Assembly (NCBI GenBank): GCA_944391115.1
Contig: CALXSJ010000004.1
Span: 101,957 to 165,956 of the forward strand
Direction of reading: 5' to 3'
DNA length: 64,000 bases
Origin: an uncultured Victivallales bacterium
GTDB taxonomy: Bacteria > Verrucomicrobiota > Lentisphaeria > Victivallales > UBA1829
Both the position numbers and the translations under genes were made by a program. The notes under the pieces were generated by a model, which worked only from the letters and a program-made list of their open reading frames with translations, was not told the origin of the DNA and searched no databases. Shown piece by piece: positions 2,581 to 51,114 of the stretch (its first letter is position 1; each line of letters opens with the position of its first letter).

Positions 2581-3393
2581 TCATTCCTGCAAACCGTAAA
2601 GGGCGCGGAGATGCGAGGGGGACATGGCGCGATGCTTTTTAAAAATGCGGGAAAAATGAAATTCGTCTTCAAACCCGCATTCGCAGGAGATCTCGCTGAT
2701 CCGCATATGAGAGGTCATCAGAAGTTTCTCGGCATGCCGCAGACGGCACTCCAGAAGATACTGTCCCGGCGCCCATCCGGTCATCTGCCGGAAGATCCGG
2801 CGGAAATGAACATACGAGATGGAAAGCTTTTCCGCCTCCCGCTCAAAATCCCATGCGAGCTGCGGCGCATCGGCAATCTTCTCCCGCAGGAGATGAAGCC
2901 TGCGGACATACGGGCTGGAACTGCGCACGCATCCCGGAGACTGCTCCTGAAGCTGCAGAAGAAGCTCCTCCAGCAGAAGCACCGCCCGGGCATGCTGGGA
3001 ATCTCCCGGAATCCGAACATATTTCAGCAGAGAACGCACAGCCTCCATGAACGGCTCATTCGCGGTGATCCGGACAAACAGATTTTTTTCCCGGAGCTGC
3101 AGAAGACCGCTCCGGAGATAACGTTTCACCCGCTCCCCCTTGAAACAGATATGCGCCTGCCGCCGCTTCATTCCGGGCCGTGATCCGTAGGAAAAGGAAA
3201 CACCGGGATAGGTAATGAAGGCGAGCGGGCCGTCCGCGATTTCAACGGGATGGTCGTTCACCTTCGCGAAAACCTCCCCTTCAAAGATGTACTGAATCCC
3301 GTAATATCCTTCGAAGCGTCTGTCAACGGCGGAATTGTCCACCCAGTCGGAGATTCCGCAGGTGACGAAGCTGATATCGCTGAAATAACTCAT
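2581..3393 (-). CDS. AraC-family transcriptional regulator
   Basis: C-terminal AraC-type double HTH (ISYVHFRRIFRQMTGWAPGQYLLECRLRHAEKLLMTSHMRISEISCECGFEDEFHFSRIFKKHRAMSPSHLR). Start moved from the track start 3498 to ATG 3393 (MSYFSD) because GGAG lies just upstream. This ATG overlaps the stop of the upstream gene as ATGA. Confidence 0.85.
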   Translation of the reverse strand: MSYFSDISFVTCGISDWVDNSAVDRRFEGYYGIQYIFEGEVFAKVNDHPVEIADGPLAFITYPGVSFSYGSRPGMKRRQAHICFKGERVKRYLRSGLLQLREKNLFVRITANEPFMEAVRSLLKYVRIPGDSQHARAVLLLEELLLQLQEQSPGCVRSSSPYVRRLHLLREKIADAPQLAWDFEREAEKLSISYVHFRRIFRQMTGWAPGQYLLECRLRHAEKLLMTSHMRISEISCECGFEDEFHFSRIFKKHRAMSPSHLRALYGLQE

Positions 3394-5189
3394 CGTCTCC
3401 GCTCCGTTTCCGATTTTCCATCCGCAGGCGGAAGCAGTTTCTCCATGGCCTGAAGAATTGCCCCGGATATGGTTTTTCCCGCGGCGTTCTCCTCCCATTC
3501 CACGGCAGCGTCTGCGGAATTTTCCCCTTCCGCGCGGCCGGAGGGAACCGCGTTTCCGGAAGAATCCGGCGGAATCTCCCCGACGGTTTTCGATTCGATC
3601 CAGGAAATGGACTCATCGGAAATCATGACCGCCGCGTATTCTATGATGTCGCGGAATTTCTTTTTCACACCGAGAATCCGTTCGGAAACATCTCCGATAT
3701 TGCGCCGTCCGATCTCCACCGTGCGCCCCGGCACGAGGACGGCAAGAGTCTCGCCGACCGGAAAGGAAATGTAATCCTGACGGAACATGTCGGTAAAGCG
3801 GACGCAAAGAAGAATCGTCACATTGTGAAGCGCCTTTTTCCCGGTATTCGTCACATGCAGGATCACACTGTTGGTGAAAAATGCGGAATCAATGGCTATG
3901 TCCACCTCATTTTCCGGATCGGCGCTGATCCGGAAAAGATCGGTTTTCAGAAAACGGCTGGAGAAACGGAAATCGTCCAGGACCTTGTCCCATTCCCCCT
4001 GCATGCGCCGCCGGAAAAAGTGATCGAAGATCTTTTTGCGCGCGGCCTCGCGCCGGCCGTCCCTGAGCAGAAGGCGCGCCAGCTGGAAGTCCGGGCTGAA
4101 GTATCCGGATCCCGACATGATCGCGCGAAAGGCGTTGACAATGATCCTCCCCTCCATGGACTGATTGAGATAAGCGCGCTTCCGGTAGATGCCGAGTCGG
4201 TCGGTGAGCTCCTTCTGCTGCTTCGGGAAATACACCGCGGCCTGGGAGAAATCGGTGACCGCCTCGTCGGAACGGTTCATCCGGACTTTCACCACGCCGC
4301 GCAGAAGATGTCCCGGAGCGCTGGCGGGATACCTGTTCAGGAATCCGGCGATCAGACCGTCCGCGGCGGCGAAATCCCCCTCCCCTCCCCGCTCCAGCAG
4401 CGCCATGGCCAGAAGGATGTGCGCCTCCTTCTCATCCGGAGCAAGCCTGACCGCGGCGGACGCATTCGCAATCACCTCGTCAAGGCTGCCTTCCCAGGCG
4501 GCGAGATAGGCGCGGTCGCGCAGCGCGCAGAGCCGTTCCCATTCGCCGTAATACCGGGAGGAGAGAGTCATGAACTCAAACAGGAAATCAATGATCTCAT
4601 CCTGATTCCGGTCCACCCGGAGGCGCAGTTCGCCGCTCATCCGCGCCCGTTCCCGATGCTTCTCCCAGATTCTCTGCGCCTGAACGCGGCTGTAGGAGAA
4701 TGCGAGCGGATCCACAACGGAGGCGAAATCCAGCAATGCATCGCGCGCGGTATGGTAAAGGGATTTCAGTTCCGCTTCGGACGCCCGGTTCGAAAGCAGA
4801 TTCTTGTAGACATTGAAAAAGCGGTATTTGAGAAGCTGAACTTCCGGAGCGACCTTTTCCGGCGAATCCTGAACGATATATTCCGTCAGCTGTTCAAAGT
4901 TTCCGGCCTCCCGAAGCGCGGTCTCCATGGCAAAAAGCGCCTCCGCCGTGGTATCGGGATCATACTGCGGAGCCGCGCCGGCAAGGAGCTTTTTCTCCAT
5001 CCGGGCGATCCGCTGTTCCACACGCGGTTCCGCTTCGCGGATATATTCCGGCTTTTCATCCTGTTTCCACGGACGGACAAGCAGCAGAACGCAGAAAACG
5101 AGGAGAAGCAGAAAGATGCCGGAAAAAATCAGACACCCGCCTGCAGCCGGCGAAAACTTTTTCTTGTTCGGAACATTTTCTTCCGCCAT
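3390..5189 (-). CDS. Membrane-anchored hypothetical protein with helical-repeat (TPR-like) region
   Basis: 599-aa ORF with a single N-terminal hydrophobic anchor (CLIFSGIFLLLLVFCVLLLV). Middle has TPR-like helices (AHILLAMALLERGG, LLRGVVKVRMNRSDEAVTDF). No family recognised. Translationally coupled to the AraC gene. Confidence 0.65.
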   Translation of the reverse strand: MAEENVPNKKKFSPAAGGCLIFSGIFLLLLVFCVLLLVRPWKQDEKPEYIREAEPRVEQRIARMEKKLLAGAAPQYDPDTTAEALFAMETALREAGNFEQLTEYIVQDSPEKVAPEVQLLKYRFFNVYKNLLSNRASEAELKSLYHTARDALLDFASVVDPLAFSYSRVQAQRIWEKHRERARMSGELRLRVDRNQDEIIDFLFEFMTLSSRYYGEWERLCALRDRAYLAAWEGSLDEVIANASAAVRLAPDEKEAHILLAMALLERGGEGDFAAADGLIAGFLNRYPASAPGHLLRGVVKVRMNRSDEAVTDFSQAAVYFPKQQKELTDRLGIYRKRAYLNQSMEGRIIVNAFRAIMSGSGYFSPDFQLARLLLRDGRREAARKKIFDHFFRRRMQGEWDKVLDDFRFSSRFLKTDLFRISADPENEVDIAIDSAFFTNSVILHVTNTGKKALHNVTILLCVRFTDMFRQDYISFPVGETLAVLVPGRTVEIGRRNIGDVSERILGVKKKFRDIIEYAAVMISDESISWIESKTVGEIPPDSSGNAVPSGRAEGENSADAAVEWEENAAGKTISGAILQAMEKLLPPADGKSETERRR

Positions 5190-5318: not shown

Positions 5319-6200
5319 TCAGAATTTCATCAAATCCTCAAACGTCCGGCAGAGCTTTGCAATGGAAACATGCTGTGACGCGGAATTGGTTTCATTCTGC
5401 ATGCTCAGAATGCGCGGACACTGTTTCAGCGCCGGGATCAGACTCTTCCAGTCAACCGTTCCCGTGCCGGGAAGATGGTGCTGGTCCTCATATCCGTTAT
5501 TATCATGCAGATGGCAGGTCACAATATGCGGAGCGAGCTTCCCGAAGGCATCCGGTTCCTGCACGACGCCGTTTTTCCAGCAGAGATTCATGTAGGAAGC
5601 ATATTTTGCGGGATCCTTGCCTGGCTTCTTTGCCATGACGTTCGCATGTCCGGCGTCAAAACAGCATCCGAGAACCGGCGTGTTGAAATAATGAAGGAAG
5701 TAAAGAACCTCGTCCGGCGTGTTGAACGGCTCGAAACTGTTTTCCAGGGCAATGACGATCCCGAGCTTCTCCGCCGCAGGAATCAGCTTTTCGAGGGAAT
5801 CGACCGCCAGCGCGCGCATTTCTCCGAGTGTCGTGTTCTTGTAGTAGCAGTCGTAGGCGCCGATATGCATCACGTAGGAACGGCAGCCGAAGTCGGCGGC
5901 ATACTCCATGCAGAGTTTGTGATCCTCGATCATGGCGCTCCGGCGGGGGCGGTCCGTGATGTTCAGGTCCCAGGCGGTGCCCCAGAGGCCGTGGCACTCG
6001 AACATTTTCATGCCGCTCTCCCGGAGCCAGCTGAGAAGAGTGGTGTAAAATCCGGGTTCCCGCACCAGGCGTTTCTCCCATGAGGTGTCCAGGACGATGT
6101 TTTCCGCGCCGTTGTCGGCAAATTCGCACAGAATGTTCACGATGAAATCATCGCTGATTTTCCCCCAGGGGAAAAAGTGGGACAAGGGAATTGTATTCAT
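5319..6200 (-). CDS. Sugar phosphate isomerase/epimerase (xylose isomerase-like TIM barrel)
   Basis: 293 aa with family-typical segments (IVIALENSFEPFNTPDEV, GCCFDAGHANV, VTCHLHDNNG). ATG at 6200 overlaps the histidine kinase stop (ATGA). Confidence 0.8.
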   Translation of the reverse strand: MNTIPLSHFFPWGKISDDFIVNILCEFADNGAENIVLDTSWEKRLVREPGFYTTLLSWLRESGMKMFECHGLWGTAWDLNITDRPRRSAMIEDHKLCMEYAADFGCRSYVMHIGAYDCYYKNTTLGEMRALAVDSLEKLIPAAEKLGIVIALENSFEPFNTPDEVLYFLHYFNTPVLGCCFDAGHANVMAKKPGKDPAKYASYMNLCWKNGVVQEPDAFGKLAPHIVTCHLHDNNGYEDQHHLPGTGTVDWKSLIPALKQCPRILSMQNETNSASQHVSIAKLCRTFEDLMKF

Positions 6201-8167
6201 GAATCGTTTCCTCCATTGTTTTCAGAAAACTGTTCTGCAGGCAGAATCACATCGAAAGCGGCGCCGCGCCCCGGCAGATTGCCGCACTGGAGCCAGCCGT
6301 TGTGCGCAAGAATGGTTCCATATGCCATGGCCAGTCCCATGCCGGTTCCCTTCCCGACGGGTTTCGTCGTGAAAAAGGGTTCGAACACCCGGGATTTCAC
6401 AGCGGGATCAATTCCCGTCCCGGTATCCTCGACGCGGATGACGCAGAGCTTCCGCGCCGGATCCGGCTTCACTTCCGGCGGCGGATCAAGTGCAATGCCC
6501 ATCGCCTGCGGGTCGCCGATCCGGATCGTCAGGATCTGTTCCTCGCTCTCCGTATTGGACTGCATCGCATCCTTGGCGTTTATCATCAGGTTGAGAAGAG
6601 TCTGCTGGAGCTGAATCGCATCGCCGCGGACGATGTACCGCCTTCCGTCGTCAAGAATCCGGAAGGTGATGCCGGACTGCGTGCCGGGGAGAAAGAGATC
6701 CGCGCACTTGTCCACGAGCCCGCGCACATCCACATCGGCATTCTGGTAGTTTCCCTTCCTCGCGAAACTGAGCATCTGCGAGGTCAGCGTTCCGGCGAGT
6801 TCCGTGATATGGTCGATCTTGTCCAGGTTGCGCCGGACATCCTCGTCCTCCACGTCGTGCATGTATCTGATGATGTCGAGATGCCCCTGGATGGCATGCA
6901 GATAGTTGTTGAAGTCATGCGCGATTCCTCCCGCAAGACGGCCGATCGCTTCAAGACGCTGCCGGTGCGACACCTGCGAATGCCATTCCTCGCGTTCGCG
7001 CTCCAGTTTGCGCCGTTCCGTGACATCCCGTCCGAAGGTAATCAGAAGCGGCGCGTTTTCAAACGGAATCATGGTGATGGAGAGCTCCAGCTCCGTCTCC
7101 TTTTCCGGAACGATAATGGAACAGGACACAGACAAATCCTCCGCCGTGCGCGGAAGCTCGGAATCGCCGCCGCGCTCCAGAAGATGGCGCCAGACCTCCG
7201 GATTCAATCCGGCAACCTCCTCGAACGAATGGTTGATGACCTCTGAAAAGGTATCCGCACCGAGCATTTTAAGCGCGGCGCGGTTCGCGTCGATCACCCA
7301 GCCGTTCTCATTCATGACGACAATCATGTCGCTGGCGTTCTGAACCAGCATCCGATAGCGTTCCTGCGATTCGCGGAGATTCTGCTCCAGCTTGAGAGCG
7401 CGCCCGTATCCGCCGAAGAATGCCAGAATGATGTCCAGCGTGCGGCGCGACTCTCCCGGATTTTCATGCGAGATCCTTGAAAGATAGATCGTCGTCGGGA
7501 CACTCAGGATCAATACGAAAATCGCACGGGCAAAATACGAAGTCGTGAGCTGTGCCCACCATGCGGACGAGCCCCAGTAGGCGATCGTCACAAACACAAT
7601 ATGGTCAATCAGCTGAATCAGCAGCAGAGAACCCGTCACGGTTACATACAGCCGGCAGCGGAAATTCATCAGACGCTGGAAGAAGATCGGCAGCAGGAAC
7701 AGGTCGAACGTCAGAGCAATCACCGCCGCCGCCATCATCCGCAGACTGTTCGAAAGCAGAAATCCGAAAGATTCCGTCACGATGCTCTGGGGCATCGTAT
7801 AGCCGGGCCAGGTGGTCTGCACCAGGGTAATCGAAGCCAGATAGGCGTAAAATCCGAGCGATGCCATGACGCCGATAATCAGACGCTGCGCGGCAAGCGT
7901 GCCGTCCGTCAGGTAGACCACCACGAGGACGGCCAGAAACGGCAGGAAGAGAACCGACGAGGAGAGAGAAAAATCCAGTCCCTGATAACCGATCATCATC
8001 CGGAGTCCGGAAGCGCCCGTCAGCTGGGTGAAAACCAGAAGGACGCCGGCGGCGATGTAAAACGGCGTGGAGCCGAGAACCTTGCGCAGACCGTGAAGAA
8101 TCAGCAGCCCCGCGAGAATGAACGTCATCTCCAGAAGAGTGAGACAGCATCCGTAAAAGATTTCCAC
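6197..8167 (-). CDS. Sensor histidine kinase (multi-TM N-domain, PAS, HisKA, HATPase_c); no receiver domain
   Basis: About 230 aa of hydrophobic helices, then a PAS-like segment (ERYRMLVQNASDMIVVMNENGWVIDANRAALKMLG). H-box GGIAHDFNNYLHAIQGHL. ATP-lid motifs LLNLMINAKDAM, EDTGTGID and GTGMGLAMAYG. Confidence 0.9.
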   Translation of the reverse strand: MEIFYGCCLTLLEMTFILAGLLILHGLRKVLGSTPFYIAAGVLLVFTQLTGASGLRMMIGYQGLDFSLSSSVLFLPFLAVLVVVYLTDGTLAAQRLIIGVMASLGFYAYLASITLVQTTWPGYTMPQSIVTESFGFLLSNSLRMMAAAVIALTFDLFLLPIFFQRLMNFRCRLYVTVTGSLLLIQLIDHIVFVTIAYWGSSAWWAQLTTSYFARAIFVLILSVPTTIYLSRISHENPGESRRTLDIILAFFGGYGRALKLEQNLRESQERYRMLVQNASDMIVVMNENGWVIDANRAALKMLGADTFSEVINHSFEEVAGLNPEVWRHLLERGGDSELPRTAEDLSVSCSIIVPEKETELELSITMIPFENAPLLITFGRDVTERRKLEREREEWHSQVSHRQRLEAIGRLAGGIAHDFNNYLHAIQGHLDIIRYMHDVEDEDVRRNLDKIDHITELAGTLTSQMLSFARKGNYQNADVDVRGLVDKCADLFLPGTQSGITFRILDDGRRYIVRGDAIQLQQTLLNLMINAKDAMQSNTESEEQILTIRIGDPQAMGIALDPPPEVKPDPARKLCVIRVEDTGTGIDPAVKSRVFEPFFTTKPVGKGTGMGLAMAYGTILAHNGWLQCGNLPGRGAAFDVILPAEQFSENNGGNDS

Positions 8168-8200
8168 CGCATCAGCGCCTTTCCCTGTTGTACCGCCGCC

Positions 8201-9265
8201 TTATTCCTGCAGAAACTTTCTCAGAAGCGCGGCGCGCGCGACGTCGCGGTTTTCCTGATCCAGTTCCCGCCCTTCGTATTTCTGGAGATGCGCGGCCTGA
8301 ACCAGAAGGAACAGTTCATTGACCGTATGAATGTTCACGGACCGGAACATGTTCAGGTCCACTCCGAGCCGCAGCGCGGAAAGGGAGTTGAGAGACTCGT
8401 CTCCGGAAATGATGTAGGAATGCTTCAGCAGTCCGTAAGCGCGCCCGATATGGTTCATCAGATGGTTCTGGCGGTTCGCAAGAAGCAGCGCGCGCGCCTT
8501 TTTTTCGTGCGTGATGATCTGCGCAATCACCGATGCAAGACGACGGATGATCTGCTCCTCGCTCTCCCCCAGCGTGCTCTGATTGGAAATCTGATAGAGA
8601 TTGCCGAGCGTCTGGCTGCCCTCTCCGTAGAAGCCGCGCGCCGCAAGCCCGAGCTTGTTGACTCCCTGCACGACGGCCTGAATCTGATTCGTCAGGACAA
8701 GTCCCGGCAGATGGAGCATCACGGAGGCGCGCAGCCCGGTTCCCAGATTCGTCGGGCAGGACGTCAGATAGCCGAACGTCTTGTCAAAGGCGAACGGCAG
8801 CTCCATGGAAAGCTCATCGTCCAGACGGCTGATCCTCCTCCAGATTTCATTCAGCTGAAATCCCGGAGCAAGCACCTGAAGGCGCAGGTGATCCTCCTCG
8901 TTGACCATCACGAACAGCCCCTGTTCACGATTCGTCACCAGCCCCGCGCCGCGGCGGGGATTCAGGAACTCCCGGCTGATGAGGTGGCGTTCCAGCAGAA
9001 ATCGGCGGTCCAGCTCGGAAAGCTCGTCCACCTTGAACTCGCAGGTTTCCGTCTCCTTCATGGAATCCGCCCGCTCCAGCACGCCGAAAACGGAATCGCG
9101 GACAGCCGTCAGGGAAACGTCATCGGAACGGACGGGAAACGGCTCTCCGGAAAGATTGCGCGCCAGACGGATGCGGCTGCTGATGGCGATGTCATCCTCC
9201 GGGCCGTTGTCCGTCAGCCAGCAGACAGGCTGACGGAACAGCGCATCGATCCGCTCATTCGGCAT
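8201..9265 (-). CDS. mcsB: Protein arginine kinase McsB (ATP:guanido phosphotransferase family)
   Basis: 354 aa. Motifs SSRIRLARNL, EEDHLRLQ and LTSCPTNLGTGLRASVMLHLPGL are typical of McsB/guanidino kinases. Confidence 0.9.
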   Translation of the reverse strand: MPNERIDALFRQPVCWLTDNGPEDDIAISSRIRLARNLSGEPFPVRSDDVSLTAVRDSVFGVLERADSMKETETCEFKVDELSELDRRFLLERHLISREFLNPRRGAGLVTNREQGLFVMVNEEDHLRLQVLAPGFQLNEIWRRISRLDDELSMELPFAFDKTFGYLTSCPTNLGTGLRASVMLHLPGLVLTNQIQAVVQGVNKLGLAARGFYGEGSQTLGNLYQISNQSTLGESEEQIIRRLASVIAQIITHEKKARALLLANRQNHLMNHIGRAYGLLKHSYIISGDESLNSLSALRLGVDLNMFRSVNIHTVNELFLLVQAAHLQKYEGRELDQENRDVARAALLRKFLQE

Positions 9266-9830
9266 GGACGTCCTCCTTCCCCTCCCCTTCCAGCGCCTTC
9301 TTCAGCTCCTGAATCCGGTCCCGCAGGACGGCGGCCTCCTCGTATTCCTCATTCCGGATCCGGATTTCCAGTTCCTGCTGGCAGTCGGCTATCTTTTTGC
9401 GGAGAGCAACTTTCTCGATCACATCCTCGGTCCGATGATCCGTTTCATGATTCCGCGGAGTCTTCCCGAGATGCGTCGACCCGCGGTGCATATTTTCCAA
9501 TACGCCGGACAACACCTCGGAAAAGACCAGATAACACTCGGGGCAGCCGAGACGGCCGGTCTTCCGGAAACGTTCCGCATCCCAGCCGCAGGCGGCGCAT
9601 TTCACGGACGGCGCGGCGGACGTCTCCTCGGCTCCGCCGGCATTTTCCTGCCCGTTCTCATTGGTGAAATTGTAAAGCATTTCGGCAAGGTTGAAGCTCT
9701 GGAGGATCGGTTCCGTTTCCGCATTTTTCGCGGCGCACTCCGCACAGAGATGAAACACTTTCTTTTCGCCGTTGATGATCTCCTGGACATGGATTGTGGC
9801 GGGATTCTTGTTGCAGATCTGGCACAGCAT
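9255..9830 (-). CDS. mcsA: McsA-like activator (zinc-ribbon pairs plus UVR motif)
   Basis: Has CQICNK...HLCAECA and CAACGW...CPECY Cys pairs, followed by a UVR-type helix (EEYEEAAVLRDRIQELKK). Overlaps mcsB by 11 nt. Confidence 0.85.
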   Translation of the reverse strand: MLCQICNKNPATIHVQEIINGEKKVFHLCAECAAKNAETEPILQSFNLAEMLYNFTNENGQENAGGAEETSAAPSVKCAACGWDAERFRKTGRLGCPECYLVFSEVLSGVLENMHRGSTHLGKTPRNHETDHRTEDVIEKVALRKKIADCQQELEIRIRNEEYEEAAVLRDRIQELKKALEGEGKEDVHAE

Positions 9831-9853: not shown

Positions 9854-10582
9854 TCAGAATGACACGTTCACATCCCCGCTGAGGGTGTGGGGCGGAGGGA
9901 CGATGAAACAGCCGGAAACGTCGTTCCAGTCGCGGTCCCAGCTGCTGAGCATCAGAGGATCGGTCGGGGGGCCCCAGGGATTGATGTCGACAATCAGGAT
10001 CTTTCCGCCCGCCGTGAAATAGATGTCCATCGCACAGTCACGCAGTTCGAGAAGCGGCGCAATTTCATTCACGAATTTCTCCGCTTTCGACCAGTAGGTC
10101 TGCCGGAGATTCACCAGACGGCGGAAATGACGGATGAGCCAGTACTGGCTCATGGCCTGCAGCTTCCCTCCGCGGATGAACAAGCGGAATTCGCGGGTCA
10201 CATCCATGCGCCGGAACGGACGGATGCAGATCCGGGAGACGGTCCCGGCCTCCGCGGCAGAACGCACCTTCGAACTTTCCGCAAGCACAGCCCATGCGCT
10301 CTTTGCCGAGCTGACCGCGCCGCGTTTCCGGAGAAAGCGTTCCGTGTCGGTCGGCGCAACCGCGTCCACGGAAACAAAACGCATCCCGCTGAATGTGCGC
10401 AGGGCAAGATTCAGGCGCGGCAGAACGGCGCTGACCACTTCGCCCTCCGTTTCTCCGGCGGAAAGGGCGGCGATTTCAGGCTCTTTCAAACTCAGGAACA
10501 CGGCGGGAAAACTGTAGGAGGACAGTTTCGGATACCAGTCCTGCATACGGTAGAAATCGTAATTTTTCACAATGAATCCCAT
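9854..10582 (-). CDS. CDC123/D123-family ATP-grasp-like protein
   Basis: 242 aa. Aligns by eye with eukaryotic CDC123: N-terminal DWYPKL, mid EFRLFIRGGKLQAMSQ, C-terminal MDIYFTAGGKILIVDINPWGPPTDPLMLSSW (compare human DIYRDSRGKVWLIDFNPFGEVTDSLLFTW). Strong RBS AAGGAAGGTGAGG sits before the ATG. Confidence 0.7.
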   Translation of the reverse strand: MGFIVKNYDFYRMQDWYPKLSSYSFPAVFLSLKEPEIAALSAGETEGEVVSAVLPRLNLALRTFSGMRFVSVDAVAPTDTERFLRKRGAVSSAKSAWAVLAESSKVRSAAEAGTVSRICIRPFRRMDVTREFRLFIRGGKLQAMSQYWLIRHFRRLVNLRQTYWSKAEKFVNEIAPLLELRDCAMDIYFTAGGKILIVDINPWGPPTDPLMLSSWDRDWNDVSGCFIVPPPHTLSGDVNVSF

Positions 10583-10599: not shown

Positions 10600-11550
10600 T
10601 TAAAACAGGTCCTCGTCATCCTTCCGCGGCGGATTCAGCTGTTTCTGCACTCGGCTGAACACAACCAGGTGATAGAGGAAAAACGCAATGAAGAACACCG
10701 TCTGGAAACTCAGGAACGGAAGCGCCATCCCCGAAAAAAGAGCCGCGATGATCAATGGAGGAAACGCCGCATAAAGCGTAAGAATCAGAATCGTCCGGAA
10801 GCCCATTTTCCGTTCCGCGCCGTTCACCGACCAGAAATACTGGGCCAGAGCGAAAAAGAGCACCGCAAAAAAGCAGAGCAGCAGCATCCCGAAAAATGCC
10901 AGAATAAAAATCACAAATGCCACGCCGGAAATCATCTGCCCTGCGACAACGGCCGGATTGTCCACGGAGAAACCGTCCGGCCAGAGGGCGAGATCCTCCA
11001 TCTTCTCCCCCTTTTTCAGGCTGAAGCGGTCCGCCAGATACGCGCCGAGCTCCTCGCGGGAAGTCACCAGTTTCATCCATGGAATTTCCTGCGCAAGGCG
11101 TCCGTCGAGCACGGAACTCATCACCATATACTGCTCATGCGCAGTGCCGGACACGTTCCGGAACCATGTCACAATCGCACGGTCAAGCAGAACGATTCCA
11201 TAATCGGAGTCCCATTGCCGCACCGCGGACGGCTGAAAAGACGCGCCGGGGAAATAATCAAAACGCATCCGGGGATTCAGGATATAACTTTGCGCCTTTT
11301 CCGGATTCTTCAGCAGGCGGATGCCGGTATCCCGCGAGATCGTCACACCGCCGACCTGTTCGAACAGAACATTGCAGACGCGCCGGATCTCCCTGCCGAT
11401 CAGCCAGGTATTCACCGCGGAAAGACAGGCGGACAGAAGAACAAGCAGCAGCACGAAGTGAAAAAGCGCCCGCCAGACGGAACGGTTCATCAGCTGAAGA
11501 AAAACCGCCGTCCCGGTGCAGACCTGAAACACTGTCCTGAAAAAATTCAT
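10600..11550 (-). CDS. Polytopic membrane protein (DUF1189-like architecture)
   Basis: 316 aa. N-terminal MNFFRTVF plus a TM helix, then a soluble ~150-aa loop, then C-terminal hydrophobic helices. The family call comes only from this architecture and the N-terminal pattern. Confidence 0.55.
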   Translation of the reverse strand: MNFFRTVFQVCTGTAVFLQLMNRSVWRALFHFVLLLVLLSACLSAVNTWLIGREIRRVCNVLFEQVGGVTISRDTGIRLLKNPEKAQSYILNPRMRFDYFPGASFQPSAVRQWDSDYGIVLLDRAIVTWFRNVSGTAHEQYMVMSSVLDGRLAQEIPWMKLVTSREELGAYLADRFSLKKGEKMEDLALWPDGFSVDNPAVVAGQMISGVAFVIFILAFFGMLLLCFFAVLFFALAQYFWSVNGAERKMGFRTILILTLYAAFPPLIIAALFSGMALPFLSFQTVFFIAFFLYHLVVFSRVQKQLNPPRKDDEDLF

Positions 11551-11554: not shown

Positions 11555-12169
11555 TTAGGAAACCAGTCGCTTGATGGTGTAATTCTTATTGCCGGACTTC
11601 CGGATGATCTTTTCCAGAGCGGGAAGAATCTCTTCGAAATCCGGCGATTTCACGCGCTGGACATACACCACACCGTCCAGATGGTCGAGCTCGTGCTGGA
11701 GCGCGCGCGCCAGAAGCCCGCCGCAGTCCAGATGAACGGGCGGTCCGTCCAGGATCTGCGCCTTGAGCACAACGGAAACCGGCCGCTCCACAGGTGCGTA
11801 AATCTTCGGCACGCTCAGGCATCCTTCCTCGCGCGTCTCCAGCGCACGGGAAAACGAAACGATCTCGGGATTGACAAGAACCACCGGCATCCGGTGACAG
11901 AGTTCCGTCTCGCCAGGAGAAAGCGGCATGATGATATTTCCCGCCTTGTCCGTCGGCGGATCGACATGCAGCGCAACCATTCGCAGCGGAACGCCCACCT
12001 GCGTCGCCGCAAGACCGATGCCGTCTTTGGCATACATCGTTTCAATCAGTTTTTTCCCGAAATCGCGAATCTCATCGTCGATGCGCTGCACCATCTTCGC
12101 CTTCGCATGCAGCACGTTGTCGCCGAGAGTCCGGACTGTCAGAATTTTCTTTTTTCCGGTGTTCAGCAT
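11555..12169 (-). CDS. def: Peptide deformylase
   Basis: Contains the three Def motifs GIGLAATQVG, EGCLSVP and HELDHLDG. Start is ambiguous among ATGs at 12178, 12175 and 12169; 12169 is best spaced from GGAGG at 12183-12179. Confidence 0.9.
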   Translation of the reverse strand: MLNTGKKKILTVRTLGDNVLHAKAKMVQRIDDEIRDFGKKLIETMYAKDGIGLAATQVGVPLRMVALHVDPPTDKAGNIIMPLSPGETELCHRMPVVLVNPEIVSFSRALETREEGCLSVPKIYAPVERPVSVVLKAQILDGPPVHLDCGGLLARALQHELDHLDGVVYVQRVKSPDFEEILPALEKIIRKSGNKNYTIKRLVS

Positions 12170-12186
12170 TTCCATCATCCTCCGTT

Positions 12187-13779
12187 TCAGCACGCGGTTC
12201 CGAGCGCAAGAGTTTTTCTGATCCGGGAAGCGCATGCGCCCGTTCCGATCACGGCGGCCGTCTCATACATGCTCCCGCCGACCGTCACACCGGTCACGGC
12301 GACCCGCAGCGGCTGATTCAGCTTGCATGCGCCCATGCCGTGCGCGGACTCGACTTCGCGCAGCGTCTGTTCAACCTCCGTTTCATTCATCGACGGCTTC
12401 CGTTCAAAAATATCGGCAAGCGCGGCAAGCGCCGTCCTTGTCGTTTCGTCGGAAAGCAGCTTGCGGAATCCCTTCGGATCATATTCAAGGTCATCGCAGA
12501 AGAAGTATTTCCAGGCGTTCACGTCCTGATAGGTTTTCGTGCGGGTCTGCATCAGCGCGGCGACCTTGGCGAAAAGCTCCCGGGAAGCGGACGCGCGCCA
12601 CTCCCAGCGTCCGGCAAAATCCCATGCCTCGGATTCGAAGCGTGCAAACGGCATTTCCGCCAGATACATTCCGTTCATGTTCGCAAGCTTGACAAGGTCG
12701 AACTGCGCGGGGGACCGCTGGGCGCGGTCAATGGAAAACGCCTCGACCAGCTCCCGCCTTGTCATTTTCTCGCGGTTGTCGCCGGGCGACCATCCGAGCA
12801 GAGAAAGATAGTTGAAGAGCGCTTCCGGCAGGAATCCCTTTTCGCGGAAATCACCCACAAACGCGTCGCCGTCGCGTTTGCTGTACGGCTTTCCGGAGGC
12901 GTTCACCAGCATCGGAAGATGCGCATAAGTCGGCGGCGTGAATCCAAGAGCCTGAAACAGAAACAGATGGCGGTACGTGTTCTCCACATGATCGTCGCCC
13001 CGCACAATGTGGGTCACGCGCTGCGTCACGTCGTCGCAGACGTTCGCCAGATGGAAGACCGGGCTGCCGTCGCTGCGGATGATGACAAGATCCTTGATTC
13101 CGTCGAGCGGTTTTGCCAGTTCCCCTTTCACGAGATCGTTGAAAAAGACTTCACGGCGCGAAAACTCGAACGCGGCGGCTCCGGAAATGATTTTCGGCTC
13201 AACCAGCTGTTCCACCTCACGGATATTGGAAGCGTCAAGCGTGAAAATCACGTTTCCGGCTCCGTCGAACACGTTCAGATCCTTGAATCCCGCAAGTCCG
13301 GCTGCATTTTCAACGGTTTTTCCCTTGTGGTTGACCACGGACCAGGTCAGCCCGGCGCGGGAAACTGCAAACGGCGCTTCCGGCGCCAGTTCCGTGCGGA
13401 CGCGTCCGCAGGCACGGACAAAGGGGAAGGAATCGCAGTCATACGGGAGACGGAACAGCACCGGGGAGCCGGGCTGTCCCGGATTGAGTTCATAAGCAAC
13501 CCCTCTGGCGATCAGGTCGCGCGCCGCCTGCTTGTGATGTTCGCTCTGGGAGGTCTGGTACATCACCTCGCCGTCGTAATCAAGTCCAAGCCATTTCATG
13601 CACTCGAACAGGGCGTCGATCGCCTGTTTTGTGGAACGCTCCAGATCGGTGTCCTCAATGCGGAGCAGGAACTCTCCTCCGCAATGGCGGGTGTAAAGCC
13701 AGTTGAAAATTGCGGTTCTGATATTGCCGATATGAACCTGTCCCGTGGGGGACGGCGCGAATCTGGCTCTGAAATCCAT
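12187..13779 (-). CDS. gltX: Glutamate--tRNA ligase
   Basis: N-terminus RFAPSPTGQVHIGNIRTAIFNW carries the HIGH motif, and a YSKR-type second motif is present. ATG at 13779 (MDFRARF) is preceded by AAGGAG; the track start at 13809 is less likely. Confidence 0.9.
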   Translation of the reverse strand: MDFRARFAPSPTGQVHIGNIRTAIFNWLYTRHCGGEFLLRIEDTDLERSTKQAIDALFECMKWLGLDYDGEVMYQTSQSEHHKQAARDLIARGVAYELNPGQPGSPVLFRLPYDCDSFPFVRACGRVRTELAPEAPFAVSRAGLTWSVVNHKGKTVENAAGLAGFKDLNVFDGAGNVIFTLDASNIREVEQLVEPKIISGAAAFEFSRREVFFNDLVKGELAKPLDGIKDLVIIRSDGSPVFHLANVCDDVTQRVTHIVRGDDHVENTYRHLFLFQALGFTPPTYAHLPMLVNASGKPYSKRDGDAFVGDFREKGFLPEALFNYLSLLGWSPGDNREKMTRRELVEAFSIDRAQRSPAQFDLVKLANMNGMYLAEMPFARFESEAWDFAGRWEWRASASRELFAKVAALMQTRTKTYQDVNAWKYFFCDDLEYDPKGFRKLLSDETTRTALAALADIFERKPSMNETEVEQTLREVESAHGMGACKLNQPLRVAVTGVTVGGSMYETAAVIGTGACASRIRKTLALGTAC

Positions 13780-13912
13780 CGTATTGCTCCTTAAATAAAG
13801 TATGCGCAAAAGCGGTTTGGACTTTTGCGCGCTGAAAAAACAATTCTGAAAATGAACTTTCCCGGAGCTCCGCGGAGAATCGCCGCCGCGGAGGATTCCG
13901 GAACGTCCGCGG

Positions 13913-15325
13913 TCAGTATTCGCCGGTCGCCGCCATCAGCTGAGCTTTGGCATTATGCATGTTGATGACGTAGGTCGCAAGGGAGGTTTCCGCATCGACC
14001 AGGTCGCGCTGCGCCTCGTTCAGACGGGTCAGCTCGGTATTTCCGGCACGGTATTCCTCATCGACGAGGTCGCGGATTTTCCGGTAAAGTTCCAGACTCT
14101 TCTGGAAAATCTTGACCTGTTTCAGACATGTAAGATAGTTGTCATAGGCGGTTCTGACTTCGGCAACCACGGTGATCCACGTGTTTGCCAGCGAGTAGTC
14201 GCTCTGGAGCATGGCGGCCTGGAAGCGCCGCATATTGAAGAAGGTTTCCCCGCCGCTGAACAGCTCCCAGGAGACATTCCCCCCGTAACTGAAGTAAAAG
14301 GTTTCACTTTTATTGGTGCGGCTGTTGGAGTCGTCATACGCCTTGATGCGGCTCTGTCCGACAGTATAGCCGATGTTCGCATTCAGGGAGACGGTCGGTC
14401 CGAAGGAACAGATGGATCCCCAGTAGTTGTATTTGGCGACTTCAAGCGCCTCGCGGTATGCCTTGAGGTCGGGACGGCTCGCGAGAGCGGTATCCAGATA
14501 GACGGCAAGACTGGAGAGAACCTCGCCGTCGGGAGACGGCACGCCGGGGAACTGCACTTCCTCGTGAATCGTGCCCTCTGTCAGCCCCATCAGCTGGGCG
14601 AGCGCGTATTTGGAGGCGGCAAGCTGATACTGCGCGGCATACAGGTCGGATTCCGCGGAGTTGTAGTAGGCCTTGAAGTTGAGCACATCGCTCAGAGGGA
14701 CGGCGCCGACTTCGAACTTCAGTTCGTTTTCCTTCAACTGGGAATTCTGGAATTTCATGTTTTCCTTGGCGATCACGATTTTGGCATTCGCCAGCAGGAT
14801 GTCATTGTAGGCGTAGGCGACGGTCCGCACAAGGATGCGGCGGGCGTCAAGTTCGAGCGCTTCGCTCTGCTTCCAGTTGTGGCGGGCGGCAAGCAGGTTC
14901 ATCTCGCGGACAAAAGAGTCGAAGAGCAGCCAGTTCGCGGTTGCGCTGGGACCGTTTTCAAACGAGCGGGAGCCGTTCTGGATGTTGTTGTAAACATTGT
15001 TGGGCTCATTGAACGTATGGGTAATGGAATATCCCGCGGTAATGGTCGGCATGTAGGGGGCAAAGGCCGCATAATAGGACGCCCGGGCGGCGACGACTGC
15101 GAAATACTTTGTCTTGAAGTCCGGATTGTTCTGAACTGCAAGATTCTGGGCATCCTCCAGCGTCAGAAGCTTCTGGGTGATATCCAGTTTCTTGTGTTCC
15201 GAACCGGGAATGCTGGTGAACGCGCTTCTTGAAATCGCCACCGGAGGTTTCGGATACGACGTGCACCCTGAGAGGACGACCAGTCCAGACAGAGCAAATA
15301 CCGCTGCAATACGTTTTCTGTCCAT
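13913..15325 (-). CDS. TolC/NodT-type outer-membrane efflux lipoprotein
   Basis: Lipobox signal MDRKRIAAVFALSGLVVLSGC. Two-repeat outer-membrane-factor pattern with coiled segments (LAARHNWKQSEALELDARR, LNEAQRDLVDAETSLATYVI). No RND or MFP partner genes are adjacent. Confidence 0.8.
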   Translation of the reverse strand: MDRKRIAAVFALSGLVVLSGCTSYPKPPVAISRSAFTSIPGSEHKKLDITQKLLTLEDAQNLAVQNNPDFKTKYFAVVAARASYYAAFAPYMPTITAGYSITHTFNEPNNVYNNIQNGSRSFENGPSATANWLLFDSFVREMNLLAARHNWKQSEALELDARRILVRTVAYAYNDILLANAKIVIAKENMKFQNSQLKENELKFEVGAVPLSDVLNFKAYYNSAESDLYAAQYQLAASKYALAQLMGLTEGTIHEEVQFPGVPSPDGEVLSSLAVYLDTALASRPDLKAYREALEVAKYNYWGSICSFGPTVSLNANIGYTVGQSRIKAYDDSNSRTNKSETFYFSYGGNVSWELFSGGETFFNMRRFQAAMLQSDYSLANTWITVVAEVRTAYDNYLTCLKQVKIFQKSLELYRKIRDLVDEEYRAGNTELTRLNEAQRDLVDAETSLATYVINMHNAKAQLMAATGEY

Positions 15326-15483
15326 TTCGTGAAATCCTTTAGCCTGTTTATCAAAAGCCCTGCGGCCTGCCGTTTTGTTACCCATCTGTTTTATAAGTGA
15401 GTATTATACACTTATCTTCCCCTGAATTCAAACAGAAAGCGGCGCGGAAATGATTTTTTTATTAAATTATTTTGCTGCTGAAA

Positions 15484-15606: not shown

Positions 15607-17367
15607 TCAGACCTCTTTCGTCCGCTCCAGCTGCCGCCGGAAATCCGCATTGAGTTTCTCCAGGTAGCCGAAACGGGAGCGGATGAAATCCTCCACCGTG
15701 GTTTCTTCATAAAAATCCCGGAGCAGGGTCCGCATCTCCTCCCGGAACGCGGCAAGTTTGTCTGCCAGCGCGGCGGAATAGCGTTTCATCATGTTCAGCC
15801 GGTAATCCGGAATCGCATGTCCAAGCTGTCCGTCGTAATACTGAAGATAATTGACAATGCGCGTCCGTTCCGTCACAAGAGACTCGGCGGCGGCCGCATA
15901 GCGCAGGAAATTCAGGCGGCGCGACCCGGGATTGACTCCCGCAATCCGGTCATAGACATACGGCTTCTTCCCGATATGGAGAACCGCCTCCGACAACACG
16001 GGATCAAGGATCTCCCCGTAAAACAGCAGGGAGAAATTCCGGATGAACGCTTCCAGGCACATGGGGGCCCCGCTCCACATGCTCATGGCTCCATATGCGA
16101 TCGGGAACCAGGAACTCTCGTGCGGTTCCGCAGGACAATCCGCCGAGGCGATCCTGGTCCATCCGGTCGCGACAACGCATTCCAGGCGGTTTTCGACCGC
16201 GCTCTTGGCCCAGGCGTCCATATTCTGCGCGCGGATTTCCAGCGGAGGAAGAGAGCCCGCCCAGTTGTCACATCCGGAAAAACCGCTCGCCCCCCAGACC
16301 TTCGCACCTGAAACGAGATACTCATGCAGGTAGGGGAAAACGTTGTTTATCCCTCCATAACCGTATGCCCAGTACATGAGCACGGCTTTCTTTCCGAGCA
16401 TCCAGCAGGCCTTCGCTTCGGCTTCGGACAGGTGTCCGTGCAGATTGCGCAGTATATCCTCCCACATGACCGGAGTTCTGCCGTGCGCGATCAGATAATC
16501 AATGCATGCCTCCGTTTTCTTCAGGTAGGAGCCGGCTTTCCCGAGTTTTGCGCATTTCACGCAGCGTCCGAGCATGTCGGTTTCATCCGCGCCGATATGA
16601 AAATATTCCGTGTGCTCGGCAAAGCATTCCATCAGCTCCGACGCCATGGCCTCCCACAGTTTCTGCGCAGCGGGAGAAGACGCGCAATACTGGAACGGAT
16701 GCCCGTCCTCGCGGAGATCCGCATACCTTTTGTGCTTCAGAAGATAATCCGCATGGGCGAGACACTGCAGTTTCGGGACAATCATGATATTCAGCGCACG
16801 GGCATAGCGGCTGAATTCACGCATTTCCTCGAAGGTATAGGCGTCCTTCACCCCGACGCCGGGGGCGCAGCGGTAATCGTATTTGTCCTCCAGCTCAAGC
16901 AGGATGGCGTTGATCTTGAGGGAAGCCAGAATCCGCATCTCCTCCTTCAGCACCTCGAGCTTCGGCTGAAAGCCTTTCAGGTCCCAGTGCATCATGCGGA
17001 TCGGAATGGACGCATGATCCCGGATTTCCATGCACTGCACGGATGAGGGGAACTGCAGCAGAGTCTGAATGCCGTAAAACAGACCGCCGGCCGATGCCGC
17101 ATCGATGCGAATGCAGTCCTCCGTGACGCGCAGCACATAGGCATCCGCTTCTGCTCCGGCATCAGCCGGAGACATTCCGGACTTGCCAGAAGTGAATTCG
17201 GCAAAAAAACCTTTTTTGCTCCGCACGACTTTCAAATCCGGGAAACGCTCTTTGAGGAGCGATTCCGTTTCTTCGTTCACTCCCGCGCACCGGAGTCTCC
17301 GCATGGCACCCATGCAGCAGACCCCGCGGGCGGGGACCATCTGTTTCACAGGCGGGATCAAGTTCAT
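15607..17367 (-). CDS. GH20-like glycoside hydrolase (beta-N-acetylhexosaminidase family)
   Basis: GH20b-like N-domain (YVLRVTEDCIRIDAASAGGLFYGIQTLLQ). Catalytic TIM barrel with IRDHASIPIRMMHWD and HIGADE (D-E pair). ATG at 17367 overlaps the regulator stop (ATGA). Confidence 0.7.
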   Translation of the reverse strand: MNLIPPVKQMVPARGVCCMGAMRRLRCAGVNEETESLLKERFPDLKVVRSKKGFFAEFTSGKSGMSPADAGAEADAYVLRVTEDCIRIDAASAGGLFYGIQTLLQFPSSVQCMEIRDHASIPIRMMHWDLKGFQPKLEVLKEEMRILASLKINAILLELEDKYDYRCAPGVGVKDAYTFEEMREFSRYARALNIMIVPKLQCLAHADYLLKHKRYADLREDGHPFQYCASSPAAQKLWEAMASELMECFAEHTEYFHIGADETDMLGRCVKCAKLGKAGSYLKKTEACIDYLIAHGRTPVMWEDILRNLHGHLSEAEAKACWMLGKKAVLMYWAYGYGGINNVFPYLHEYLVSGAKVWGASGFSGCDNWAGSLPPLEIRAQNMDAWAKSAVENRLECVVATGWTRIASADCPAEPHESSWFPIAYGAMSMWSGAPMCLEAFIRNFSLLFYGEILDPVLSEAVLHIGKKPYVYDRIAGVNPGSRRLNFLRYAAAAESLVTERTRIVNYLQYYDGQLGHAIPDYRLNMMKRYSAALADKLAAFREEMRTLLRDFYEETTVEDFIRSRFGYLEKLNADFRRQLERTKEV

Positions 17368-48343: not shown

Positions 48344-48594
48344 TCCTATTATATCGATACAGCTCCCCCTGAAGTTCAAAGTCTCAACAATGCCGATGCA
48401 AATGCGGAAAACATCAAGGGATGAATCGAAAAGCCCGATCCGCCTGCATGATGAAATGCGGGAGGGAATTATGCCGAAAGCCAATCCGGCATATGTCGAC
48501 AAAACATCCAACATGGATTCGGAATATCCGGAGCAGTCCGCTGCCTCCGGCAGGAATTTCAAGAGATACAGAACAGAAAAGAAGGAGATCAATC

Positions 48595-51114
48595 ATGGTA
48601 GCTCGAATTTCCACAGATTCCGTCAATTGCCAATGCTGTTATTTTCAGCTTTCCGACAGCGCTTTTCTGGAAGTTTCCGGTCTGCCCGGCAATGCCGTCC
48701 GGGTGCGGATGCAGCCTGAATTTCCGTTCCGCGAGAAAGAGGAATTCATCTTCGGGAAATACCAGGCGCTGCAACCGGATGTCGAAGAAACGCCGGAGAA
48801 CTTTATCATCCGGTTTCCCGGAATTTCCGTCCGCCTGGACAAGGCGGCGGAAGCACTGAGCTTTTTCAATGAAACGGGAGAACGGCTTCTGGGGGAGATC
48901 CCGGGGAGCCGCTTCTTTCAGAAGAAAAACAATTTCCGCTCCGCCGGGATAGCCTTCGACTCGCCGCCGGATGAGGCATTGTTCGGACTGGGGGAATTCC
49001 AGGACGGCGCCTTGAACATCAGAAACCTTCCACGGCGTCTGATTCAGGTCAATACGCAGGCATCTCTGCCGATGCTGTATTCGACCCGGGGCTACGGGCT
49101 TCTGTGGCACAACTACAGCATGACCGAATTCAATCCGGGGGAAATTGCGATTCCCCTGACCAAAACAGGCGAAGGTCAGTCGCAGGAAATCGAAGTCACG
49201 ACTTCCGAAGGGGGAAGCAAAGACTCTTCGAGCCTTGCACTCTGGACGGGCGAATTCCGGACGGAGGAAAGCGGAGAATTCGCATTCGCCCTGGATTGCG
49301 GACAGGTGATGACCCGCACCCATGTTCTCAGGATCGACGGGCAGACCGTCTTTCAGCGCCGGAATTTCTGGCTCCCGCCGTTCATGGGGGGGAGAATCCG
49401 CCTGGAAGCGGGGCTCCATCGTGTTGAAGTCGAGAACGAATCCCGCGATATTCCCGTTCTGACATACCGCGCAGACCGGAACCGGACCGTCTTCCGCTCC
49501 GATCTCACGACCGGAATCGATTACATCGTGTTTTCCGGGAGCGCGCCGGAAGTGACGAAGCATTTCCGGGCCCTCTCCGGCCAGGTGCCGATGCTCCCGA
49601 AATACGCGTTCGGCTACTGGCACTGTCGGGAACGCTACGTCAGCGGGGAAGAGCTGCTGGAAAACCTGCGCGAATTCCGGAAACGCGGCCTGCCGCTGGA
49701 CATTATCGTGCAGGACTGGCAATGGTGGGAGGACGGGAAATGGAACTCCATGGTGTTCGACCCCGTCCGTTTTCCGGATCCCGCGGGCTTGAATGCGCAG
49801 GTGCATGCACTGCATGCCAGAAGCATGTTTTCCGTCTGGTCGGTTGTCACCCGGAAATGCACATTCGGAACTGCCCTCCAGGAAGCGGACGGTTACATCG
49901 GAACAACCGACTGTGTCGATTTTTCCAATCCATCCATCGCCGACCTCTACTGCCGTCAATTCTACAATCAGCTGGTGACAACTGGAATCGACAGCTGGTG
50001 GTTTGATGCCACCGAACCGGGAGACGATGCGTTGAAAGACCGGAAGCTCCATCTCGGCGAAGGTAATTTCTACCGGAATATCTATCCTCTTCTGGTCAAT
50101 ACCTGCGTCGGAAAAACATTGCGGCAGAAACAGCCGGACCGGCGCGCACTTGTGCTGACACGCTGTGCGTTTTCCGGACAGCAGAGGATCGGACAGGTGA
50201 TCTGGAGCGGCGATGTCGGAAGTCAATGGCAGGATTTCCGGACCCAGATTACCGCCGGACTGGGAACCATGCTGACCGGGCTCGCCTACTGGACCAGCGA
50301 CGCGGGCGGTTTTTTCCGTCCGAAAAACCAGTATGACGATCCGGACTATCACAAACGCCTGATCCGCTGGTTTGAATTCGCCACTTTCTGCCCGGTCCAG
50401 CGCGTTCACGGATTCTCAAGCAGAACGGAACCATGGCGCTTCGGCGAGACGGTGGAGAAGGTTTTCCGCAAATATCTGGAACTGCGTTATCGTCTGCTGC
50501 CCTACATCTATACGCTGGCAGGGGACGTCGCAAGCCGGGGATACACGATGATGCGTCCCATGGTCATGGATTTCGCCTCCGACCGGGAAGCGTTGCGGAA
50601 TGAAACGCAGTATATGTTCGGTCCGTCCATTCTGGTGGCTCCCGTATGCGAAGACACGGAAACGGCGGAAGTCTATCTGCCGGAAAAAGAGGAGTGGATC
50701 GATTTCTGGACCGGGAAGCGTTACCGCGGCGGACAGTATGTCAGCGTGGACGCTCCGCTGGACCGGATCCCCCTCTTTCTGAAAGCCGGCTCCATCCTTC
50801 CATGGGGTCCCGCGATGCAGTATGTCGGCGAAAAGGACGACGCGCCGGAGTTCAGAATCTGCGACGGGAAGGACGCGGAGTTCATGTTGTATGAAGACGA
50901 CGGAACCAGTTACCGCTATGAACAAAAGGAATTCAGCAGAATCCGTTTCTTTTGGAATGAATCGAAGCGTCAGCTCACAATCGGAGAGCAGGAGGGAGAA
51001 TTCACGGGCATGCCGCGCGACAGGGAATTCCGGATCTCCAGATTCTCGTGCCCGGAATGCCGCGTGACCGTCCATTATCACGGAGAAAAGCTGGCAATTG
51101 ATCTCCCCTGGTAA
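48595..51114 (+). CDS. GH31-family glycoside hydrolase (alpha-glucosidase/alpha-xylosidase-like)
   Basis: ATG at 48595 after GAAGGAG. Motifs LDIIVQDWQWW, GIDSWWFDATEPG (nucleophile Asp region), WSGDVGSQW and RVHG. Confidence 0.9.
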   Translation: MVARISTDSVNCQCCYFQLSDSAFLEVSGLPGNAVRVRMQPEFPFREKEEFIFGKYQALQPDVEETPENFIIRFPGISVRLDKAAEALSFFNETGERLLGEIPGSRFFQKKNNFRSAGIAFDSPPDEALFGLGEFQDGALNIRNLPRRLIQVNTQASLPMLYSTRGYGLLWHNYSMTEFNPGEIAIPLTKTGEGQSQEIEVTTSEGGSKDSSSLALWTGEFRTEESGEFAFALDCGQVMTRTHVLRIDGQTVFQRRNFWLPPFMGGRIRLEAGLHRVEVENESRDIPVLTYRADRNRTVFRSDLTTGIDYIVFSGSAPEVTKHFRALSGQVPMLPKYAFGYWHCRERYVSGEELLENLREFRKRGLPLDIIVQDWQWWEDGKWNSMVFDPVRFPDPAGLNAQVHALHARSMFSVWSVVTRKCTFGTALQEADGYIGTTDCVDFSNPSIADLYCRQFYNQLVTTGIDSWWFDATEPGDDALKDRKLHLGEGNFYRNIYPLLVNTCVGKTLRQKQPDRRALVLTRCAFSGQQRIGQVIWSGDVGSQWQDFRTQITAGLGTMLTGLAYWTSDAGGFFRPKNQYDDPDYHKRLIRWFEFATFCPVQRVHGFSSRTEPWRFGETVEKVFRKYLELRYRLLPYIYTLAGDVASRGYTMMRPMVMDFASDREALRNETQYMFGPSILVAPVCEDTETAEVYLPEKEEWIDFWTGKRYRGGQYVSVDAPLDRIPLFLKAGSILPWGPAMQYVGEKDDAPEFRICDGKDAEFMLYEDDGTSYRYEQKEFSRIRFFWNESKRQLTIGEQEGEFTGMPRDREFRISRFSCPECRVTVHYHGEKLAIDLPW

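Follow-up and report, generated by a model that had tools for sequence, protein, structure and literature searches.

What does a protein-arginine kinase work with when its genes lie in a diderm bacterium, beside neither ctsR nor clpC? The question is raised by a 64,000-nucleotide stretch (64 kb; hereafter the window) of contig CALXSJ010000004.1 from an uncultured Victivallales bacterium, in which mcsB, the gene for a protein-arginine kinase, and mcsA, the gene for its activator, stand between a D123-like ATP-grasp gene upstream and a gene for a membrane sensor histidine kinase downstream. In Firmicutes such as Bacillus subtilis and Geobacillus, mcsA and mcsB belong to the class III heat-shock operon ctsR-mcsA-mcsB-clpC. 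The original prediction for this locus took both flanking genes to be the partners of the pair and held that this implied a different wiring of arginine phosphorylation. We found that the Lentisphaerota carry a lineage-specific three-gene form, mcsA-mcsB-sensor histidine kinase, in which the kinase gene occupies the slot that clpC fills in sister phyla of the superphylum that unites Planctomycetes, Verrucomicrobia and Chlamydiae (PVC).

On all the sequence criteria tested, the window pair is a bona fide McsA/McsB module, predicted to act as a protein-arginine kinase. A Pfam scan of the mcsB product found one domain only, ATP-gua_Ptrans (PF00217, residues 70-257, E=3.6e-67), and precomputed annotation adds the McsB_C domain PF27454; the protein scored 408.8 bits against the NCBIfam model NF002194 ('protein arginine kinase'), above its cutoff of 385, and 396.5 bits against the Bacillus-specific NF053707, under its cutoff of 500. 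The nearest solved structures are all McsB (6fh1, 8wtb and 6tv6; E ~1e-84, with residues 15-352 aligned). The protein joins a guanido phosphotransferase domain to a C-terminal dimerisation domain and lacks the helical domain that phosphagen kinases carry at the N-terminus; an identity as a free-arginine phosphagen kinase was rejected on account of that missing domain, the presence of the McsB C-terminal domain and the adjacent mcsA. The window McsA carries a UVR motif (E=3.9e-6, Pfam scan), matches B. subtilis McsA (8wtb_B) end to end (E=1.5e-28) and scored 135.7 bits against NF053706, whose Bacillus equivalog cutoff of 210 it does not reach. It has two Cys4 zinc sites (Z1, C3/C6/C29/C32; Z2, C78/C81/C96/C99), with all eight Cys invariant among homologues, a Z2-L3 McsB-binding segment (FRKTGRLGCPECY / HRGxxHxGKxP) and, at the C-terminus, a UVR coiled coil (residues 145-178). 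The two open reading frames (ORFs) share 11 nt, and the overlapping mcsA/mcsB pair of the original prediction is upheld by ORF coordinates, family scores and structure matches alike.

The residues on which function would depend are largely intact. We mapped B. subtilis numbering through the 8wtb alignment, in which the chain index is the native position plus 2. The NEEDH motif spans N122-H126 of the window McsB, its second Glu, E124, corresponding to B. subtilis E121, and the catalytic Cys is C170 (B. subtilis C167; 8wtb/6tv6 alignment); the roles of both are described in PMC11046695. The Glu of the GEGS motif, E215, aligns with the Glu at B. subtilis position 212, an equivalence given by alignment alone. 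Within the phospho-arginine (pArg) receptor site, R340/D341/R344 correspond to B. subtilis R337/D338/R341, and S285 aligns with G288, next to S287; three of the four receptor residues are kept (PMC8370763 describes what the receptor site and pArg194 do). Across 19 Lentisphaerota McsB sequences there is no variation in NEEDH, in the catalytic Cys or in the pocket residues. Loss of catalytic residues, which the original prediction had named as a refutation, was not what the alignment showed. The octamer-stabilising R190 and R194 of B. subtilis are replaced by N193 and A197; because both stabilising arginines are missing, a closed octamer of the B. subtilis type need not form in the window species.

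The kinase is the conserved third gene of the Lentisphaerota mcsA-mcsB cassette. It follows mcsB in 9 of 11 Lentisphaerota lineages that were independently retrieved through McsB, and an orthologue with 36-87% identity over the full length lies directly after mcsB in loci L007-L010, L087 (from a widespread Victivallales), L088 (CP119760.1, strain ZTH), L089 (an 8.6-Mb contig) and L139, while the remaining flanking genes all differ. The gaps between mcsB and the kinase gene are 12-41 nt in loci with gene calls (33 nt from the mcsB stop to the kinase start in the window), and the adjacency persists down to ~50% McsB identity and 36-49% kinase identity. We also ran the test in reverse, scanning metagenomes with the VUPS half of the kinase as query; mcsA-mcsB was directly upstream in 26 of the 36 kinase orthologues with sufficient upstream sequence. 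Neighbour-joining of 105 distinct McsB sequences, done as a quick distance analysis with no support values, placed the kinase-linked McsB in one clade, separate from Verrucomicrobiota, Planctomycetota/Omnitrophota and Firmicutes clades that have clpC in the slot. Phylogeny and neighbourhoods, the comparison that the original prediction had called for, agree with its choice of the downstream histidine kinase as a partner, at least as a conserved neighbour across Lentisphaerota. The linkage is real and apparently undescribed.

In lineages without the D123 block described below, sigma-70-like promoters (TTGAAA or TTGCA, a ~17 nt spacer and a TATATT-like element) were found 40-70 nt upstream of mcsA (L008, L009, L087, L088, L108, L111, L113, L116, L117 and L125); with such a promoter just upstream of mcsA, the cassette looks like a single, self-contained operon in most lineages. 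No common operator-like inverted repeat was evident upstream of mcsA in these promoter-bearing lineages, and a scan for sigma-54 promoters gave no convincing match. One metagenomic lineage (L117:4125-7850, L118 and L125:4177-7929) has the order mcsA, a divergent McsB-like gene (32-33% identity) and a VUPS kinase. Its McsB-like protein has NGDDH for NEEDH, Ser for the catalytic Cys and Asp for the Glu at B. subtilis position 212, and keeps both arginines of the pArg pocket; judged by these residues, the protein could be a pseudokinase, or a reader of pArg, that is still kinase-linked.

The kinase itself is predicted to be catalytically competent, because seven orthologues of 36-87% identity show no variation in the phospho-acceptor His (H417, within GGIAHDFNN) or in the N, G1, F and G2 boxes. 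Its domains are a multi-pass VUPS region (21-229), which is related to YhhQ/Vut_1 transporters, a PAS domain (~269-386), HisKA (E=1.4e-6) and HATPase_c (E=5e-16), and a receiver domain is absent. Conservation of the orthologue N-terminus supports the GTG start at 8167. Among NCBIfam models it comes nearest to VirA-like and CckA kinases, every score being far under cutoff; it is like the orphan CckA/VirA-like HisKA kinases in its GGIAHDFNN H-box and its N, G1, F and G2 boxes, and unlike them in being receiver-less, in its multi-pass VUPS input and in its operonic association with an arginine kinase. No Response_reg gene was found within ~10 kb in six annotated neighbourhoods, and a motif scan of low sensitivity detected no CheY-like receiver in the window. 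The N-terminal half of the kinase, used as a protein-database query, gave 11 matches, all fragments, and a literature search on VUPS kinases found nothing relevant.

Some kinase orthologues occur in other company. At L095:3419-7926 the orthologue follows a zinc-ribbon Hanks-type Ser/Thr protein kinase, and at L096:1285-4807 and L099 it follows a Memo-AMMECR1 fusion protein. These off-site orthologues (L095, L096 and L099) are 65-68% identical to the window kinase and do not lie beside mcsAB.

Neither the operon nor the rest of the window contains the canonical partners ctsR and clpC, as the original prediction had stated; tblastn, motif scans and a survey of ORFs all agree. ClpC and CtsR of Paenibacillus, taken from the canonical operon of locus L055, had no match in the window (tblastn, E<=1e-5), and the sole notable match in the window after relaxation to E<=10 was that of the ClpC UVR motif with mcsA (E=0.07). 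Motif scans of the window found neither a Clp-type Walker A nor the CxGNxCRS motif of low-molecular-weight protein tyrosine phosphatases (YwlE-type), and no AAA+ protein was present among window ORFs of at least 750 aa. Searches for the CIRCE element (the operator of HrcA) and for CtsR operators, which covered the window as well as the sequence before mcsA at every locus, returned only scattered matches with 3-4 mismatches; neither the ctsR gene upstream nor the CtsR boxes of the Firmicutes operon were found, and no CtsR box precedes mcsA at the Lentisphaerota loci examined. The place directly downstream of mcsB, held by clpC in the Firmicutes operon, is held by the histidine kinase instead. 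ClpC was not seen at any Lentisphaerota locus examined (~10-20 kb per genome); a ClpC-like match in the Victivallaceae locus L080 proved to be ClpB beside HtpG and was set aside as not ClpC.

How unusual this is can be judged against other phyla. A scan of species-representative genomes gave at least 598 McsB loci, and the best 80 of them, which we examined, are mostly from Verrucomicrobiota, Planctomycetota and Omnitrophota, at 45-51% identity to the window McsB, with Paenibacillus equally distant. Among these 80, mcsA-mcsB-clpC is the usual order in diderm loci, and a CtsR homologue was detectable only in Firmicutes loci. Some 49 diderm loci within L011-L079 (Verrucomicrobiota, Planctomycetota, Omnitrophota and a few other diderm metagenome-assembled genomes, MAGs) have mcsA-mcsB-clpC without a detectable ctsR. 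A Planctomycetia/Isosphaeraceae sub-clade (L025, L031, L034, L060, L065, L069, L073, L077 and L086) carries a stand-alone mcsAB, with variable and often convergent genes downstream and no clpC within the locus. The suggestion that mcsAB is out of the ordinary in a diderm does not hold, mcsAB without ctsR being the rule in PVC phyla, mostly with clpC following; the mcsAB module itself is ordinary for its superphylum. Literature searches on McsB with Verrucomicrobia, Planctomycetes or Lentisphaerae, and likewise on ClpC with Lentisphaerae, found nothing relevant, and the PVC-type mcsA-mcsB-clpC operon is apparently not discussed in the literature found.

Set against the Firmicutes operon, the window genes encode full-length McsA and McsB homologues (McsB ~46% identical to that of Paenibacillus) that share the NEEDH motif, catalytic Cys, pArg receptor residues, McsA zinc sites and UVR coiled coil, and the mcsA/mcsB overlap, consistent with translational coupling, is common to both. 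The window differs in having no ctsR, CtsR box or clpC, in the substitution of R190/R194 by N193/A197, in its diderm host and in a membrane histidine kinase as third gene. The PVC mcsA-mcsB-clpC operon is closer, coming from the same superphylum with no detectable ctsR, the same order and spacing of mcsA and mcsB, and 45-51% McsB identity, and it departs from the Lentisphaerota clade in having clpC where the latter has the VUPS-PAS histidine kinase. On its flanking genes the window module therefore belongs to neither operon type, and its closest precedent is the unlinked mcsAB of Chlamydia. In Chlamydia trachomatis, also a diderm PVC bacterium, mcsAB (CT675/CT676) lies apart from clpC and there is no ctsR (PMC10128030, PMC11708050); McsAB function is a prediction in both organisms. 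The chlamydial operon has two genes and is flanked by tRNA genes, whereas the window has no tRNA gene and a kinase is attached to the pair; we rejected a Chlamydia-like tRNA-flanked island for the window because tRNA genes are lacking and GC content near the module is unremarkable. Chlamydial ClpC is known and degrades pArg substrates, in that it degrades only arginine-phosphorylated casein (PMC10128030), while a ClpC of the window species is putative. Because mcsAB and clpC are unlinked in Chlamydia (PMC10128030), the absence of clpC nearby does not alone imply a new wiring, and to this extent the original prediction went further than its evidence.

Positions of the mcsA-mcsB-kinase cassette and of neighbouring features in the window.
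Feature	Position	Strand	Basis or remark
mcsA, activator of protein-arginine kinase	9255-9830	minus	191 aa; UVR motif, 8wtb_B match, eight Cys
mcsB, protein-arginine kinase	8201-9265	minus	354 aa; PF00217, NF002194, McsB structures
Membrane sensor histidine kinase, VUPS-PAS-HisKA-HATPase_c	6197-8167	minus	Pfam scan
Xylose-isomerase-like TIM-barrel protein	5319-6200	minus	4-nt overlap with kinase stop; position variable in other lineages
D123/R2K-type ATP-grasp protein	9854-10582	minus	242 aa; PF07065, E=4.6e-17; ends 23 nt upstream of mcsA
Predicted membrane protein	10600-11550	minus	316 aa; matches no Pfam or NCBIfam family
def (peptide deformylase) and gltX (glutamyl-tRNA synthetase)	11555-13809	minus	Housekeeping; same tight gene string
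TolC-family outer-membrane efflux protein (OEP)	13913-15385	minus	PF02321; diderm envelope marker

The second proposed partner, the D123-like ATP-grasp gene, fared differently. It adjoins mcsA in a single sub-clade (the window, L007, L091-L094 and L139-L141; McsB identity at least 66%), throughout which the whole block OEP-gltX-def-membrane protein-D123-mcsA-mcsB is syntenic, and no D123-like gene was found within 6-10 kb of mcsAB at any other Lentisphaerota locus. Because it is confined to one sub-clade in which the entire block is syntenic, we regard the D123-like gene as retained synteny and not as a partner, and this part of the original prediction falls. The 316-aa membrane protein is always paired with the D123/R2K gene in this sub-clade (17-nt gap), and these two genes may work together as a separate pair.

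In the window species the genes from gltX to the xylose-isomerase-like gene form one tightly packed minus-strand string with gaps of at most 33 nt. Downstream of the xylose-isomerase-like gene, and conserved on contigs of the same species, is a 599-aa protein (3390-5189, minus) with only a weak TPR-like match and no family assignment. On the plus strand a 688-aa ORF (7601-9667) runs antisense over the kinase start, mcsB and part of mcsA, and similar ORFs occur throughout the window; these long antisense ORFs almost certainly arise as artefacts from the GC-rich composition of the coding DNA. Gene picking by ORF length was rejected, since antisense ORFs outcompete real genes, and family scans and homologue contexts were used.

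The host is a Lentisphaerota gut bacterium, a diderm of the PVC superphylum. The nearest relatives are Lentisphaerota/Victivallales; several contigs from human-gut metagenomes encode an identical McsB in an unchanged gene order, and the nearest species representative among the matches listed is the Lentisphaeria MAG UBA11452 (McsB 88% identical). An outer membrane, as originally claimed, fits the TolC-family OEP gene together with an LptD_2 match at 2-2461, which is weak. The window is also rich in glycan-degrading enzymes (GH20, GH31, GH123 and heparinase II/III-like; 15607-17367, 48421-51114, 53537-56098 and 61926-63905), whose presence fits a gut Lentisphaerota that degrades host glycans or polysaccharides. 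A 932-aa ORF (58028-60826, minus) has an extracellular solute-binding domain (SBP_bac_1) and an ABC permease domain (BPD_transp_1), an apparent binding protein-permease fusion. Exact-protein look-ups of two large window ORFs returned no match.

We reasoned that a canonical, McsA-activated arginine kinase is probably co-transcribed here with a membrane sensor kinase and keeps its role in proteostasis, with an unlinked ClpC as reader of the mark. By the biochemistry of B. subtilis, McsA would use its second zinc domain and the loop that follows (Z2-L3) to bind the kinase domain of McsB and so activate McsB; the NEEDH motif and catalytic Cys would then transfer phosphate from ATP onto the arginine guanidinium of target proteins, and the McsB C-terminal domain would read phospho-arginine through the R340/D341/R344 pocket, as expected from its B. 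subtilis counterpart. Arginine phosphorylation would retain its role in proteostasis and stress marking, and the pArg mark would be read, by analogy with Chlamydia, by a ClpC encoded elsewhere. A membrane or small-molecule signal would reach the module by way of the co-transcribed sensor kinase and a response regulator encoded elsewhere, an input that would replace the one that CtsR gives in Firmicutes.

Several observations weigh against this explanation. The clpC gene elsewhere in the genome would have to be assumed from the chlamydial analogy, the search having covered the window and loci of ~20 kb, and the searches for a response regulator, a CIRCE element or a CtsR box found nothing that would suggest a regulatory route. 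Co-transcription in the window species is not specific to mcsA-mcsB-kinase, because all three genes lie inside the longer packed string. Two loci, L141 (66% McsB identity) and L080, carry mcsAB without a downstream kinase, 10 kinase orthologues are located elsewhere (L095 and L096, for example), and the raw linkage counts are inflated because many of the linked loci came from retrieval with the kinase as query. There are, moreover, no experiments on Gram-negative McsAB, and a Gram-negative McsB has never been assayed (PMC11046695).

A rather unlikely alternative is direct cross-talk, in which the membrane kinase functionally replaces ClpC as the partner of McsAB and gives a mixed His/Arg phospho-signalling without ClpC-mediated degradation; the kinase might tether and regulate McsB, much as McsB is held in check by ClpC in B. 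subtilis, or might serve as a substrate or phosphodonor. The kinase does sit exactly in the clpC slot of the sister-clade operon, it is receiver-less with no response regulator within ~10 kb (six neighbourhoods) or in the window, and no ClpC was seen in the examined Lentisphaerota loci, although this last absence says little because only ~10-20 kb per genome was covered, and Chlamydia shows that unlinked mcsAB and clpC coexist (PMC10128030). The linkage also survives in L117, L118 and L125 despite altered McsB-like catalytic motifs, and since one lineage keeps the cassette in this state, a non-catalytic role as pArg reader or scaffold is hinted at; the L095 kinase orthologue, for its part, follows another protein kinase. 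However, a physical interaction would be hypothetical, orphan histidine kinases with distant regulators are common, and two lineages carry mcsAB without the kinase. That a receiver-less kinase with a vitamin-transporter-like (VUPS) input replaced ClpC as the operonic partner of McsA/McsB, so that arginine phosphorylation or pArg reading is controlled by, or feeds, a membrane sensor and no longer marks proteins for ClpCP, is in our judgement doubtful.

It is quite improbable that gene order is neutral here, with descent alone, and no functional meaning, behind the nearness of the kinase and D123-like genes, and with mcsAB acting as a stand-alone two-gene unit. In favour of this reading, mcsAB does stand alone in the Planctomycetia sub-clade and in Chlamydia (PMC10128030), plain synteny clearly accounts for the D123 block, and the kinase linkage was lost at least twice. 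Against it, the mcsB-kinase adjacency is kept down to ~50% McsB and 36-49% kinase identity while every other flanking gene differs, the gaps are only 12-41 nt, and on established comparative-genomic reasoning such conserved order is unexpected without selection.

Protein arginine phosphorylation is understood almost solely from Firmicutes, through ClpCP degradation and CtsR control, and in the literature McsAB and ClpC still count as an essentially Gram-positive system to which Chlamydia is an odd exception. Our comparison shows mcsA-mcsB(-clpC) to be widespread in PVC diderms, and one phylum-level lineage, which includes Victivallales common in the human gut, to have exchanged clpC for a sensor histidine kinase. 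The kinase linkage is testable, and the D123 partnership is unsupported. If the linkage amounts only to co-expression, the module would be an ordinary new member of a known family; if it is functional, it would offer a tractable system for studying McsB regulation without CtsR or ClpC, and would also ask whether arginine phosphorylation can signal rather than degrade.

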